From the sequence record NC_106721.1: a stretch of 64,000 nucleotides of DNA, one strand, 5' to 3'. Under the pieces are notes generated by a model that saw nothing but the letters and a program-made list of their open reading frames with translations, had not been told where the DNA came from and did not search any database. Position 1 is the first letter of the stretch; each line of letters starts with the position of its first letter. Source of the DNA: Escherichia phage EC148. The position numbers and the translations under genes are program-made. Positions 6,120 to 62,558 of this stretch are shown in pieces.

Positions 6120-6148
6120 ATTATAGCAAATCTGGTAGCGATTAGCAA
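6120..6148 (-). promoter_or_regulatory. T5-type early promoter upstream of nrdB (TTGCTA-17-TATAAT)
   Basis: Minus strand; sits just after the nrdA terminator. Confidence 0.65.
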
Positions 6149-9716: not shown

Positions 9717-9745
9717 ATTATACCAATATATACAGTAAAAAGCAA
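9717..9745 (-). promoter_or_regulatory. T5-type early promoter upstream of phoH (TTGCTT-17-TATAAT)
   Basis: Minus strand; divergent from the nrdD promoter. Confidence 0.65.
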
Positions 9746-15154: not shown

Positions 15155-15183
15155 TTGCAGGATGCCCAAAATCTTGATATAAT
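15155..15183 (+). promoter_or_regulatory. T5-type early promoter (TTGCAG-17-TGaTATAAT) heading a ~500-nt untranslated region
   Basis: Extended -10 TG present; conserved ATTTATATTGAATTGAGAGAC downstream; no ORF for ~500 nt. Confidence 0.6.
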
Positions 15184-19723: not shown

Positions 19724-19752
19724 TTGCTTAATCCTATAATTCTTGATATAAT
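19724..19752 (+). promoter_or_regulatory. T5-type early promoter (TTGCTT-17-TATAAT, extended TG)
   Basis: Hexamers and spacing read directly. Confidence 0.65.
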
Positions 19753-20603: not shown

Positions 20604-20912
20604 ATGAGCGAACAGGTAAATCAAAACTATGAAGGACACGTTGATGACCAGTCCATCATACTTTGGGAGAAGGAGGGGGAACAAGTAAGATTAACAGTAT
20701 CTGAATTTCGTGGGAATCTATACATGGGTATTCGTTACTGGCTTCTTGATATTAATGATGAATGGTTTCCAACGAAATCTGGCTTCTCTTTTCCTTACAC
20801 CCTAGAAACAACATCACAGCTTTTCTATGCGTTTACACAGATTCTTAGCGAATCTGAGGTTTTACATGAAGTACAGAAACGAGCTGAAGAACTCAAAGCC
20901 AAGAATGCCTAG
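20604..20912 (+). CDS. hypothetical protein (102 aa)
   Basis: ORF track; terminator hairpin overlaps the stop codon. Confidence 0.5.
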   Translation: MSEQVNQNYEGHVDDQSIILWEKEGEQVRLTVSEFRGNLYMGIRYWLLDINDEWFPTKSGFSFPYTLETTSQLFYAFTQILSESEVLHEVQKRAEELKAKNA

Positions 20913-20929
20913 TTCTTGGCTTTTTCTTT
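20898..20929 (+). terminator. intrinsic terminator overlapping a stop codon
   Basis: GCCAAGAA-TGCCTAG-TTCTTGGC followed by TTTTTCTTT. Confidence 0.7.
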
Positions 20930-20939
20930 ATAAATGTAT

Positions 20940-20968
20940 TTGCTTTCAACTCAGTTTTGTTATATAAT
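20940..20968 (+). promoter_or_regulatory. T5-type early promoter (TTGCTT-17-TATAAT)
   Basis: Followed by ATTTATATAAATTAATGAGAGGG. Confidence 0.65.
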
Positions 20969-20998
20969 ATTTATATAAATTAATGAGAGGGTTGCAAA

Positions 20999-21271
20999 GT
21001 GAAAAAGATAAGTATAAGTACACTTAAACCTTTCCCGTACATCGGACAGCCTCTTATACTTATGTGGGAGGGGAAGATTAATGGAGAAAAGTATACTAAA
21101 ACTAGAAGTGGGTATAAGCTGATTTCACTTCATTACGAAAAAGAAGTATTAGTAGCTGAAATATACTCTCCGTTGTCAGATAGGCTAGTAAAAACTACAT
21201 ATTTGCATCTTTGCAAAAATTATACATGGCACGGATCCACTAGACAACCCACATACTATGAGGCAGAATAA
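20999..21271 (+). CDS. hypothetical protein (90 aa)
   Basis: GTG start; T5-type promoter 20940-20968. Confidence 0.45.
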   Translation: MKKISISTLKPFPYIGQPLILMWEGKINGEKYTKTRSGYKLISLHYEKEVLVAEIYSPLSDRLVKTTYLHLCKNYTWHGSTRQPTYYEAE

Positions 21272-22243
21272 ATGACCAATGTAAAAGACTTTATTAAACG
21301 TTGCCAAGAAGCATATTATCAAGGTATGTCTTTAATCTCTGATGAAGAGTATGATTGCCTGGTAAAACGCTTTCCGTTAGAAGAAGAGATCGGACCTAAG
21401 GGCGATATTCCACATCTGTATCGTATGTATTCTTTACAGAAAGTTTATTATAATCGTGGAGATAAACCTCCGTTTAACCCGTTAGGTCAAGTAGAAACTG
21501 ATAAGTTAGATGGTTGTGCAATTTCTCTGTTATATATTAATGGCGAATTTGTTCAAGCACTAACTCGTGGTAATGGTATTCTAGGGAATGATGTCACAAG
21601 CAACGTAAGATTGCTGAATATCCCTAAAAAGATTTCCCAAAAAGTACCTACTCAAATCACTGGTGAAGTTCTAATTACAAAAGAAGTAGAAAATAAACGT
21701 AACTTTGCCTCTGGTGCTATTAACCTCAAAGATAGTGATGATTTTGTACAACGTATCGGAGAAGGTGGTTTAATCTTCGTTGCATATGGTATCCAGTGTT
21801 CTGCTGAATCTGTAGGTATTACAGAAGCATATTTAAAAGATATGCTTTGGCTGGAGAATGAGAACTTCTTAACAGTTGTTAATGTGCGTTCCTTCTTTAA
21901 ATGGATTCCGACGGATGGTAAAGTTGTTCGTATTAATGACAACAACAAATTCTTCCGTGAAGGCTGGACTAATAAATTCCCTCGTGGAGCATTCGCTATT
22001 AAAGAGGATGAAGAAGGCGAGGTTACAACTCTTACTAAAGTTGAATGGCAGGTAGGGGCTTCTGGTAAAGTAACTCCAGTTGGTTATTTCGAACCGGTAA
22101 TTATTGATGATGCTACAATTGTTAAAGCGACTCTTAATAACGTTGATTATATTAACTCTCTTGATCTAGAGATCGGTTGCCAGATTCGAGTGATTCGTGC
22201 TGGTGGTGTAATCCCGTGCATAGTAGAGCGAGTATACGAGTAA
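21272..22243 (+). CDS. NAD+-dependent DNA ligase, N-terminal subunit (adenylation and OB domains)
   Basis: 323 aa; KxDG adenylation motif KLDGCA; ends before the Zn-finger region. Confidence 0.8.
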   Translation: MTNVKDFIKRCQEAYYQGMSLISDEEYDCLVKRFPLEEEIGPKGDIPHLYRMYSLQKVYYNRGDKPPFNPLGQVETDKLDGCAISLLYINGEFVQALTRGNGILGNDVTSNVRLLNIPKKISQKVPTQITGEVLITKEVENKRNFASGAINLKDSDDFVQRIGEGGLIFVAYGIQCSAESVGITEAYLKDMLWLENENFLTVVNVRSFFKWIPTDGKVVRINDNNKFFREGWTNKFPRGAFAIKEDEEGEVTTLTKVEWQVGASGKVTPVGYFEPVIIDDATIVKATLNNVDYINSLDLEIGCQIRVIRAGGVIPCIVERVYE

Positions 22244-22293
22244 TACATAACCCTTTGCTACCCATCTACCATATCGGAATTATAAAGTGGTTA

Positions 22294-22322
22294 TTGACAT
22301 TTTCGCCGCTTAGGTATATACT
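22294..22322 (+). promoter_or_regulatory. sigma70 promoter in the ligase spacer (TTGACA-17-TATACT)
   Basis: Consensus -35, 17-nt spacer, near-consensus -10. Confidence 0.6.
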
Positions 22323-22386
22323 AGTATCATTCAGTTGAGGGATAGAAAGTTATGGCGAGGGTAAGCAAAGTTAGTTAAAATTGTAG

Positions 22387-22415
22387 TTGCTAAATGCTTA
22401 AATACTTGCTATAAT
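22387..22415 (+). promoter_or_regulatory. T5-type early promoter in the ligase spacer (TTGCTA-17-TATAAT)
   Basis: Followed by ATTTATATAAATTGATAAGGAAG and the ligase C-subunit start. Confidence 0.7.
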
Positions 22416-22445
22416 ATTTATATAAATTGATAAGGAAGAAATTTG

Positions 22446-23216
22446 ATGAAAATCGAAATTCCAACACAATGTCCCTCTTGTGGTTCTAAGCTAGATCTTG
22501 TCAACGGACAATTATTTTGTCGGAATAAGTCCAACTGTCCAGCGCAATCAAGTAAGTTAATTGAGAACTTCTGTACAAAAATGAAGTTAAAGGGTTTTGG
22601 TCCAAAAACTATTGAGAAGCTGGAGCTGACGAAGATTTCAGAACTATTTTACCTAACCGAAGAAGATTTGGTTAGAGCCGTGGGTAGCAAGGTTGCCGCT
22701 AAGTTAATTAGCGAATTAAATACTAAAGTTCGCGGAGACATTGACTTTGGTTCAGTTCTCGGTTCTTTAGGAATCCCTCTAATTGGAGAGGTTGCAGCAA
22801 AGAAATTATCCCAAAATTGCACTAGCTTCCACGATGTGAAGGCTGACGGCAAGGCTGGAGAAAATTATAAAGCCTGGCTAAATTCCCCACAAGGCAAGGA
22901 TGTTATCGAATTACCGTGGAAATTCTCAACTGGTGCTAAAGCTAAAACCGTCGTTACTGATGATTTAGTTGCCCAGCCAAATGGAATCGCGGTATGTATT
23001 ACCGGATCTTTGCAAGACTTTGCAAATCGAACGGATGCAACAAACTATTTAGAAGGTCTAGGATATACGGTTAAGAAATCTGTTACCAAAGACGTCAAAT
23101 ACCTAATCTGTGAGGATGAATCGAAGCGTTCTTCCTCATCTTATAAGAAAGCCGAAACGAATGGGATAGAAATCCTGTCGATTAAAGAACTATTGGAGAA
23201 AAATAATAATGTCTAA
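22446..23216 (+). CDS. NAD+-dependent DNA ligase, C-terminal subunit (Zn finger, HhH, BRCT-like)
   Basis: Cys4 Zn finger CPSCGSKLDLVNGQLFCRNKSNCPAQ at the N-terminus; ATG at 22446 with AAGGAAG RBS. Confidence 0.8.
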   Translation: MKIEIPTQCPSCGSKLDLVNGQLFCRNKSNCPAQSSKLIENFCTKMKLKGFGPKTIEKLELTKISELFYLTEEDLVRAVGSKVAAKLISELNTKVRGDIDFGSVLGSLGIPLIGEVAAKKLSQNCTSFHDVKADGKAGENYKAWLNSPQGKDVIELPWKFSTGAKAKTVVTDDLVAQPNGIAVCITGSLQDFANRTDATNYLEGLGYTVKKSVTKDVKYLICEDESKRSSSSYKKAETNGIEILSIKELLEKNNNV

Positions 23217-23976
23217 ACTGAACTGGAACGTAGAAGGTGTAACCGAGTCTCTGAAAGCAAAAGCCACTGCTCTGGGTGTTTCTGTAATCTCTCAAGAACA
23301 AGTAGCCGCTATCGCCGCTGAACTGGCTGCTGAAACTGGCAAAGATGTTACCGCCCGCTCTGTTGGCTCTAAACTGCGTAAAGAAGGTTTTGAAGTACAG
23401 AAAGCTAACGAAGTACAGAAATCCCCGTGGACTCCTGAGCAGGAAGCTGAACTGGTTGATTTCCTGAACGCTCATGCTGGTCAGTATACCTATGCTGAAA
23501 TCGCTGCTGCTGTAGCTGGTGGTCAGTTCGGTGCTAAGCAGGTACAGGGTAAGATTCTGAGCCTGGAAATGACCGCTTCTGTTAAACCAACTGAAAAAGC
23601 TGCTGCTGTTCGTTCCTTTACTCCGGATGAAGAAACTGATTTTGTTAATCAGGTTGTTGCTGGTGCTACTATTGAAGCTATCGCTGCTCACTTCGGTCGC
23701 AATATTAAGCAGATCCGTGGTAAAGCTCTGAGTCTGCTTCGTGAAGGTCGTATCGCTGCTATGCCGGTACAGGAAACCTCAAGTGCTAAAACTCGTGAAG
23801 ATCTGTTAGAAGGTCTGGATCTGGTTAACATGACTGTTGCTGAGATCGCTGAGAAAACTGGTAAATCTGAGCGCGGTGTTAAATCTATGCTGTCTCGTCG
23901 TGGTCTGGTTGCTAAGGACTATGATGGTGCCGCTAAGCGTGCTAAACTGGATGCAAAAGCTGCGGCTGCTGAATAA
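23209..23976 (+). CDS. abundant repeat-containing DNA-binding protein (possibly T5 D5-like)
   Basis: 255 aa; host-optimal codons throughout; four internal ~55-aa repeats with an HTH-like core; strong terminator downstream. D5 equivalence is positional inference. Confidence 0.45.
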   Translation: MSKLNWNVEGVTESLKAKATALGVSVISQEQVAAIAAELAAETGKDVTARSVGSKLRKEGFEVQKANEVQKSPWTPEQEAELVDFLNAHAGQYTYAEIAAAVAGGQFGAKQVQGKILSLEMTASVKPTEKAAAVRSFTPDEETDFVNQVVAGATIEAIAAHFGRNIKQIRGKALSLLREGRIAAMPVQETSSAKTREDLLEGLDLVNMTVAEIAEKTGKSERGVKSMLSRRGLVAKDYDGAAKRAKLDAKAAAAE

Positions 23977-62529: not shown

Positions 62530-62558
62530 TTGCTTTCATCCCTCTATTTTGCTATAAT
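62530..62558 (+). promoter_or_regulatory. T5-type early promoter driving llp (TTGCTT-17-TATAAT)
   Basis: Followed by AGATTCATAAATTAGAAATGGAGAG and the llp ATG. Confidence 0.7.

Follow-up and report, generated by a model that had tools for sequence, protein, structure and literature searches.

Split ligase genes flank a conserved promoter region in Escherichia phage EC148

In the window analyzed here, a stretch of 64,000 nucleotides from Escherichia phage EC148 (sequence record NC_106721.1), two adjacent genes, ligA and ligB, carry the parts of an NAD-dependent DNA ligase. It is very likely that ligA and ligB of T5-type phages together encode one NAD+-dependent DNA ligase that is made as two polypeptides. 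Both the split ligase and the two promoters between its genes are already known, and what the preliminary description of this DNA had pointed out is real, correctly read and ordinary; its coordinates and assignments for both open reading frames agree with the annotated ligA (21272-22243) and ligB (22446-23216). A passage of PMC1684257, which cites Wang et al. 2005 for the T5 genome, names the split T5 ligase, as does PMC3632103. Beyond these two papers, our literature search found nothing on the structure 9HU3 or on the P-K28 promoters, and it found no biochemical data on the T5 LigA and LigB proteins. The features of the locus are as follows.

20940..20968, + strand: promoter of T5 early type, TTGCTT-N17-TATAAT, upstream of the 90-aa ORF and ligA (pattern match)
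20999..21271, + strand: 90-aa ORF with no assigned function, phrog_35018 (ORF list, PHROGs match)
21272..22243, + strand: ligA (Pfam and PDB matches, annotation)
22244..22445, no strand: ligA-ligB gap of 202 bp (stops in three frames, no Rfam family)
22294..22322, + strand: P1, distal promoter, TTGACA-17-TATACT ('promoter P-K 28b' in the T5 reference annotation)
22387..22415, + strand: P2, proximal promoter, TTGCTA-17-TATAAT with an extended -10 TG ('promoter P-K 28a')
22432..22438, + strand: Shine-Dalgarno-like AAGGAAG, 7 nt 5' of the ligB ATG (read from the sequence)
22446..23216, + strand: ligB (Pfam and PDB matches, annotation)
23209..23976, + strand: gene of the D5 DNA-binding/regulatory protein (ORF list, annotation)

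On sequence grounds, the window comes from a T5-type phage. The window as a whole, its ligA-ligB region included, is 100% identical to Escherichia phage T5_ev212, and 427 phage records cover at least 80% of the region. In EC148, its relatives and the T5 reference (NC_005859), ligA and ligB are followed by the genes of D5, a DnaB-like helicase and a primase, and the two ligase genes are annotated as subunits A and B in T5-type genomes. The D5 gene begins, with its ATG, within the last 8 nt of ligB, which makes ligB the probable first gene of the unit under P1 and P2. Upstream, the stop of the 90-aa ORF abuts the ligA start (TAAATG), and these two genes are therefore probably co-transcribed. The T5 reference lacks this 273-bp ORF between the upstream promoter and ligA, and the promoter sequence at 20940..20968 is also found there within a stretch annotated as promoter just upstream of ligA. 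A coincidence of the gap with one of the classic single-strand interruptions (nicks) of T5 was considered and dropped, as the locus lies at about 54.6% of the T5 reference genome, presumably not at the position of a major nick.

The catalytic part of the enzyme would be carried by LigA (323 aa), which matches the Pfam families DNA_ligase_aden (PF01653, E 2.2e-23) and, at residues 252-321, DNA_ligase_OB (PF03120, E 3.1e-22), the OB fold following the adenylation domain. The motif-I lysine (KxDG) is K78, within the KLDGCA motif that the preliminary description gives for the adenylation and OB domains of the first gene. The stretch of residues 4-42 (AYYQGMSLISDEEYDCL), with a YY and an ISD-EYD-L pattern, can be aligned to the Ia region of Thermus LigA, the score of this segment alone not being significant, and it is strongly conserved with PDB chain 9hu3_A; the N-terminus of LigA may correspond to domain Ia, which in the LigA family binds the NMN moiety and confers NAD+ specificity. 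The whole protein matches 9hu3_A with an E-value of 3.3e-103, and full-length bacterial LigA structures were also matched. LigB (256 aa in EC148 and 259 aa in the T5 reference, with an alternative in-frame TTG start at 22443) contains a Cys4 zinc finger (C9, C12, C25 and C31) and a BRCT match (Pfam, E 8.9e-8), and it matches 9hu3_B with an E-value of 1.5e-81. Its HHH_2 match is weak (24.6 bits against a Pfam gathering cut-off of 27), and the HhH assignment therefore rests on the alignment to full-length LigA, in which residues 3-248 correspond to 400-653 of Thermus filiformis LigA (1DGS, E 1.6e-10). With this qualification for HhH, the zinc finger, HhH and BRCT-like content proposed for the second gene was recovered.

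Both halves align collinearly to Thermus LigA and belong to one ligase family. When the C-terminus of LigA was artificially joined to the N-terminus of LigB, the product gave one unbroken alignment to Thermus LigA 328-498 with a 6-residue gap at the junction. The alignment to a full-length bacterial LigA, which had been proposed as a check, places the break in the short stretch linking the OB fold to the zinc finger, with no domain apparently lost, and the break point is identical in all relatives examined. The domains that other members of the LigA family carry on one polypeptide are here distributed over two ORFs in different frames, 202 bp apart.

Among the closest known systems are those of other T5-like phages. 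T5 ligA (T5.116) and ligB (T5.117) in NC_005859 are the same genes as in EC148, and their break point and both promoters are also shared. An orthologous two-gene ligase from a T5-like phage (Providencia phage vB_PreS_PR1 / PSTCR5) is represented by PDB entries 9HU3/9I5I, in which separate chains are named 'DNA ligase (NAD(+))' and 'DNA ligase subunit B'. Both chains were matched over their full length, and in a search with 244 aligned residues chain B did not differ from LigB of Providencia phage PR1/PSTCR5 at any of them. The Providencia subunits share about 52-56% protein identity with those of T5, and their loci have the same tandem promoter layout upstream of ligB, although the hexamers differ (TTGACG / TTGCCT). 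Since this orthologue was deposited as a two-chain entry, LigA and LigB may, by analogy, associate physically.

In single-chain bacterial LigA (e.g. E. coli 2OWO, Thermus filiformis 1DGS/1V9P), the domains follow one another as Ia, adenylation, OB, zinc finger, HhH and BRCT, an order that T5 appears to match if its putative domain Ia is counted; it shares the KxDG lysine and the Cys4 finger with T5, the joined T5 halves being collinear with it across the junction. However, bacterial LigA is one polypeptide of about 670 aa, whereas T5 has two chains with a total of 579 aa, a shorter adenylation region and an OB-to-zinc linker that is 6 residues shorter. Other phages also have split replication genes, such as those of T4 topoisomerase (gp39/gp60) and, split by endonuclease genes, nrdA and the DNA polymerase of Aeromonas phage Aeh1. 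As proposed for the T5 ligase, these are essential DNA-metabolism enzymes encoded by two adjacent genes whose products reassemble; their splits are tied to an inserted endonuclease gene or a bypass element, whereas the T5 interval is a promoter region where an endonuclease is rare and apparently secondary.

The best two sigma-70 matches in 20900-23500 both fall in the gap on the coding strand (P1 with 11/12 and P2 with 10/12). Loose matches were no commoner in this interval than chance would give (8 found, 6.9 expected), and the case for the promoters therefore rests on position, conservation and reference annotation. P-K 28b and P-K 28a are annotated in NC_005859 at exactly the positions of P1 and P2, so the two promoters noticed in the spacer correspond to annotated T5 promoters, and 201 of the 202 gap positions are identical to NC_005859. 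A P1-equivalent match was present in nine of the ten Demerecviridae lineages aligned, while P2 has zero polymorphic columns in 29 Tequintavirus sequences and carries the 'ATATT' discriminator of T5 early promoters (consensus taken from PMC7472727). Just upstream of ligB, a sigma-70 match of at least 10/12 was found in all 59 split loci examined, comprising those of nine of the ten aligned Demerecviridae lineages and at least eight distinct uncultured lineages (33-45% protein identity). The promoters of the uncultured split loci match at 11-12 of 12 positions and are confined to the final ~42-75 bp ahead of the ligB start. The whole gap measures only 59-74 bp in eight of these lineages, and in the most distant split relatives such a gap is essentially one consensus promoter.

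Counted from the ligA stop up to the ligB ATG, the gap measures 202 bp; the 199 bp given previously hold only when counting to the TTG at 22443. Each of its three frames contains 5-7 stop codons, and the only listed ORF of at least 30 aa lying mostly in the gap is an out-of-frame one of 53 aa (22177-22338), which begins within the final part of ligA. Scanning 21900-22800 against Rfam with E up to 10 gave two chance matches only (E 3.8 and 7.3), well below gathering scores. The description of the spacer as containing neither an intron-like element nor an endonuclease ORF agrees with these results, and the end of LigA and the start of LigB together match a continuous LigA with nothing extra. Among Tequintaviruses, 8.9% of the columns are polymorphic in the gap, while ligA has 36.6% and the 5' part of ligB 19.2%. 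Compared with the coding DNA that flanks it, the T5 gap shows higher conservation, and it is a strongly conserved, working regulatory region.

Every Demerecviridae genus sampled has the split, and so do uncultured relatives at 33-45% identity. Those that retain it are Tequintavirus, Sugarlandvirus, Novosibvirus, Thalassavirus, Pogseptimavirus, Shenzhenvirus and the two Providencia phages PR1/PSTCR5, besides the uncultured relatives. A set of IMG/VR loci (L043-L063) appeared in tblastn as fused genes with one continuous match; inspection showed split genes and short promoter gaps in all of them but L059, which is a single ORF of distant bacterial type. Single-chain 'compact' ligases of phage type, ~555-578 aa long, do exist among uncultured sequences (e.g. 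P0031, P0052 and P0099). Like the T5 pair, they have roughly the summed size of LigA and LigB; unlike it, they are continuous ORFs, and a linker of 10-20 residues takes the place of the T5 gap. The identity of their C-terminal halves to T5 LigB is 34-41%, a range also seen for many stand-alone LigB clusters and little higher than that of the bacterial-length LigA matches (32-36%). In a rough neighbour-joining tree, most compact ligases fall near the base and a few among the split forms. The comparison with relatives suggested earlier thus yielded both single-chain forms of ~560 aa and, in two Salmonella phages, an endonuclease-bearing interval.

These relatives bear on the suggestion, also made in the preliminary description, that the gap is the scar of a lost mobile element. 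Such an element, for instance a free-standing homing endonuclease gene or an intron, would once have interrupted a single ligase gene and left two genes behind when it was lost. Single-chain relatives of ~560 aa are consistent with such an origin, and the interval does accept insertions. In Salmonella phage SP3 and one other Salmonella phage, a GIY-YIG endonuclease gene starts at the ligA stop, and the last ~216 nt of SP3 ligA are only 69-76% identical to T5 (86-100% for the remainder), a typical homing footprint. In other relatives the interval contains a NADAR gene, small ORFs or, in Vibrio phage Cody, a DprA-like gene, but none of these intervening ORFs matched any homing endonuclease family. 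Moreover, the endonuclease occurs in just two distinct phages (three database records) of roughly 470 Tequintavirus records and lies upstream of an otherwise intact promoter pair that is 99% identical to T5; for these reasons its gain is more parsimonious than its retention, and the GIY-YIG gene looks like a recent acquisition and not evidence of a scar in T5. The T5 gap itself holds no ORF remnant in the ORF list and no intron-like RNA in Rfam, the constraint on it is stronger than that on coding DNA, and the short gaps of the most distant split relatives leave little besides a promoter. The scar origin is therefore improbable, though less so for the distant past, and found no support here, the gap being a conserved regulatory region with a promoter layout common to the family. 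Homing endonucleases were also considered for the interval in Vibrio and Proteus phages, where Pfam and PHROGs gave DprA-like, crAss001_48-like or NADAR matches or nothing; among the interval ORFs scanned with these two databases, the GIY-YIG gene of SP3 was the only one.

It is still less probable that the ligase is decaying, so that one half has become a functionless remnant and what matters is the other half alone or the host LigA. E. coli, as the host, has a LigA of its own, and there are phages that lack a ligase, which would permit such a loss. Nevertheless, both halves are intact in all ~60 loci examined (proteins 33-100% identical), all catalytic and zinc-binding landmarks checked are present, and clustering at 50% identity gives more than 100 clusters of stand-alone LigB-like proteins. 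Both genes also show the third-position excess of change typical of purifying selection, the fractions of polymorphic columns at the three codon positions being 0.24/0.17/0.69 in ligA and 0.09/0.07/0.41 in ligB.

That a single polypeptide is still produced across the gap by RNA splicing, translational bypass, frameshifting or stop read-through, an idea that stems only from the halves being adjacent and collinear, can practically be dismissed given the stops in every gap frame, the different frames of the two genes, the lack of an Rfam intron or other family, the Shine-Dalgarno sequence, ATG and two promoters that ligB has of its own, the gaps of relatives, which vary from 59 bp to more than 1 kb in length and also in content with whole genes inserted, and the deposition of the PDB orthologue as two separate chains. 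The subunit A/B annotation and the two-chain orthologue, together with the exclusion of single-chain routes as far as nucleotide data can tell, favor the two-polypeptide reading put forward at the outset.

Zinc finger, HhH and BRCT domains of single-chain LigA clamp the nicked duplex. In the two-polypeptide enzyme, LigA (putative NMN-binding domain Ia, adenylyltransferase with K78 and OB fold) would self-adenylate from NAD+, and LigB (zinc finger, HhH and BRCT) would supply the DNA-binding part. Through non-covalent assembly, either on DNA or away from it, the two may restore the usual LigA clamp, and the assembled ligase would seal nicks during T5 replication and repair. As for expression, consensus scans and annotation suggest that ligA is the last gene of the upstream unit and that the tandem early promoters P-K28b/P-K28a start the ligB-D5 unit and probably also the transcription of the helicase and primase genes beyond. 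No intrinsic terminator was found after ligA, and ligB is therefore probably transcribed by read-through as well as from the strong promoters it has of its own.

Whether the fission is linked with the promoter instead of a mobile element can be answered only tentatively: the sequences make this conceivable, and we consider it somewhat doubtful. If it is true, the ligase was cut, or has been kept cut, because the start of D5/replication transcription sits in the OB-to-zinc linker, the DNA-binding and catalytic subunits would get separate dosage or timing, and the locus would illustrate cleanly how a regulatory element can drive or maintain gene fission. For discovery itself little is added, as the split and both promoters are in the reference annotation and the structure of an orthologue has been solved; the case demonstrates that gene fission and real promoters are recognisable from raw sequence alone. 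The additions made here are the family-wide pairing of split and promoter, the constraint on the gap, the ~560-aa single-chain relatives and the occasional GIY-YIG invasion, which could help the study of split-enzyme evolution and co-regulation.

The leader transcribed from P1 was also considered as a conserved RNA structure. In T5 this leader has an unusually stable fold (-29.4 kcal/mol, z = -4.26), but the equivalent leaders of eight other genera gave z values of -0.2 to -2.3, and this candidate was rejected. Small hairpins adjoining the P2 -35 box recur across the leaders, as judged by eye.

The preliminary description proposed that an NAD-dependent DNA ligase is split into two genes, and this was confirmed; the split ligase is already known and annotated, being mentioned in PMC1684257 (with reference to Wang et al. 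2005) and in PMC3632103. A sequence search with positions 21000-23400 matched 469 records (coverage ≥80% in 427), with 100% identity to Escherichia phage T5_ev212 and 90-98% identity to hundreds of Tequintavirus genomes. The coordinates first given for both genes agreed with the ORF listing, and the locus is organized as follows:

20999-21271: 90-aa ORF (phrog_35018), function unassigned, between the upstream promoter and ligA
21272-22243, plus strand: ligA
22294-22322, coding strand: distal promoter P1, sigma-70 match TTGACA-17-TATACT
22387-22415, coding strand: proximal promoter P2, sigma-70 match TTGCTA-17-TATAAT with TG
22446-23216, plus strand: ligB
23209-23976, plus strand: D5, DNA-binding/regulatory protein gene

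LigA (323 aa) matched the NAD-ligase adenylation domain (E 2.2e-23) and OB fold (E 3.1e-22), and K78 in KLDGCA is its motif-I lysine. A domain-Ia pattern (AYYQG…ISDEEYDCL) is found at its N-terminus, where the alignment to Thermus LigA is non-significant by itself. In LigB (256 aa), positions 9, 12, 25, and 31 are cysteines, a BRCT domain was matched (E 8.9e-8), and residues 3-248 align with residues 400-653 of Thermus filiformis LigA. To the full-length enzyme we also aligned an artificial chimera of the last 68 residues of LigA and the first 95 of LigB, which formed one unbroken segment on Thermus LigA 328-498, the sole interruption being a 6-residue deletion at the join. Therefore, the cut maps to the inter-domain linker between OB fold and zinc finger with no part apparently lost, and the ligase appears complete across both genes. 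Judged from sequence, two intact, selected genes jointly hold every LigA domain.

The proposal that the ligase functions as two polypeptides was also supported. Each frame of the 202-bp gap (22244-22445) contains 5-7 stop codons, the reading frames of ligA and ligB differ, an Rfam scan detected no intron or other RNA family in the gap, and ligB carries a Shine-Dalgarno sequence and an ATG of its own. This sequence thus does not allow a single ligase polypeptide. Moreover, a two-chain orthologue has been solved: PDB entries 9HU3 and 9I5I each contain a "DNA ligase (NAD(+))" and a "DNA ligase subunit B" chain, which correspond along their full lengths to LigA (E 3.3e-103) and LigB (E 1.5e-81), respectively. 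Across the 244 aligned residues searched, chain B does not differ from the protein of the T5-like Providencia phages vB_PreS_PR1 and PSTCR5. A literature search found no biochemistry on the T5 ligase itself. A truncated ligase fragment with Ia, adenylation, and OB domains retains self-adenylation (PMC1684257). Based on this truncation and established LigA enzymology, LigA would form the enzyme-AMP intermediate, LigB would clamp DNA via its zinc-finger and HhH domains, and the two would reassemble for nick sealing.

The two promoters between the genes, also reported earlier, proved to be the best two sigma-70 matches of the region, and the T5 reference genome (NC_005859), identical at 201/202 gap positions, has precisely this pair annotated as "promoter P-K 28b" (P1) and "promoter P-K 28a" (P2). 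P2 is a member of the T5 early promoter class. The pattern TTGCT-N15-TGnTATAAT occurs nine times in the window versus 0.33 expected; the eight copies other than P2 are at:

1677-1705, 2472-2500, 6120-6148, and 9717-9745, minus strand
15155-15183, 19724-19752, 20940-20968, and 62530-62558, plus strand

Those at 1677 and 19724 look similar to PH207 and PD/E20, two classic promoters. In addition, P2 carries the "ATATT" discriminator common to all known T5 early promoters (PMC7472727). No terminator-like site was found 3' of ligA. The gene order continues from ligB to D5, a DnaB-like helicase, and primase; the stop of ligB and the start of D5 share 8 nt (ATGTCTAA, 23209-23216), which suggests translational coupling of both genes, and ligB is therefore probably the first gene of the unit driven by P-K 28b/a. 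Transcription of ligB would have two inputs, read-through from the ligA unit and its own promoters, which could uncouple the amounts of LigA and LigB.

Across 29 distinct Tequintavirus sequences, 8.9% of gap positions are polymorphic (0% in P2), compared with 36.6% in ligA (third positions 69%) and 19.2% in the 5' part of ligB. The gap is therefore a regulatory element under constraint rather than neutral filler. Within Tequintavirus, the 64-nt stretch separating P1 from P2 is conserved to the same degree as the promoters themselves (6% polymorphic). The predicted P1 leader RNA (22329-22460) forms a long hairpin (-29.4 kcal/mol, z = -4.26) in which sequence following P1 pairs with the -10 region of P2; in eight other genera, no leader fold was significant. 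A tiny ORF, ATGGCGAGGGTAAGCAAAGTTAGTTAA (22353-22379), preceded by a GAGGGA motif, also lies in this leader region.

The split occurs at the identical break point in every Demerecviridae lineage sampled, with the following ligA-ligB gaps:

Tequintavirus: 202 bp
Sugarlandvirus: 199 bp
Providencia phages PR1/PSTCR5: 192 bp
Novosibvirus: 344 bp
Shenzhenvirus: 178 bp
Vibrio phages: 437-1048 bp, extra genes inside

Of ten aligned lineages, nine keep the tandem promoter position irrespective of other insertions, with the -35 box starting 144 to 154 nt (distal) and 51 to 59 nt (proximal) before the ligB start. In four of these nine (Sugarlandvirus, Thalassavirus, Shenzhenvirus, and that of locus L036), the proximal promoter falls below the 10/12 threshold and is visible by alignment only. 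Uncultured relatives are likewise split, with gaps of just 59-74 bp, and all have a consensus promoter (11/12 or 12/12) in the last ~42-75 bp before ligB.

Relatives with an intact or endonuclease-interrupted gene had been suggested for comparison, and both single-chain ligases and, rarely, an endonuclease gene between ligA and ligB were found. LigB was searched against the full set of 1.84 billion representative proteins, which gave >100 stand-alone LigB-like clusters (about 240-260 aa). The search also recovered about a dozen proteins of 555-578 aa in a single chain; in their C-terminal halves, identity to T5 LigB is 34-41%. The compact uncultured NAD+ ligases among these (P0031, P0052, P0085, P0096, P0099, P0101, P0109, P0113, P0117, and P0122) resemble T5 LigA and LigB joined via a 10-20 residue linker. 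In a rough neighbour-joining tree, most fused forms lie near the base and a few among split forms.

Salmonella phage SP3, a Tequintavirus, and one close relative (two distinct phages, three records) carry a 213-aa GIY-YIG endonuclease gene starting at the ligA stop (MG387042 64022-64660, L034 1699-2340; equivalent site directly after window 22243); the promoter pair lies downstream of this gene and is intact. In SP3, ligA is 86% identical to T5 in its first 108 nt and 96-100% from there to its last ~216 nt, where identity is only 69-76%; past the insertion it is 98-99%. Such a drop is the usual footprint of endonuclease-driven exchange. The interval tolerates insertions: it holds a NADAR-domain gene (E 1.8e-31) in a Proteus-type phage (IMGVR_UViG_2974547928, L040 1653-2309), a DprA-like gene (phrog_768, E 6e-49) in Vibrio phage Cody (L005 1284-1844), and small ORFs without known function in other relatives. 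The alternative that the spacer is the scar of a lost mobile element is not shown by the endonuclease, which is rare and looks recent.

Upstream of ligA, the T5 reference genome lacks the 90-aa ORF, so that the promoter abuts ligA, and Tequintaviruses such as oldekolle have a different, 201-bp ORF at this spot. Some matching T5-type records are named after Listeria or Campylobacter, including OR848168.1 ("Listeria phage LM 4-14-1"), whose LigB is 100% identical to that of the window; contamination with T5-like contigs, or their misattribution, is the probable cause. LigA of Proteus phage vB_PMC-PL1 (L004 658-1656) is publicly labelled "DprA-like DNA recombination-mediator protein", while a family search detected ligase adenylation and OB domains, and D5 of phiLLS (KY677846) is labelled "portal vertex protein"; both are likely annotation errors.
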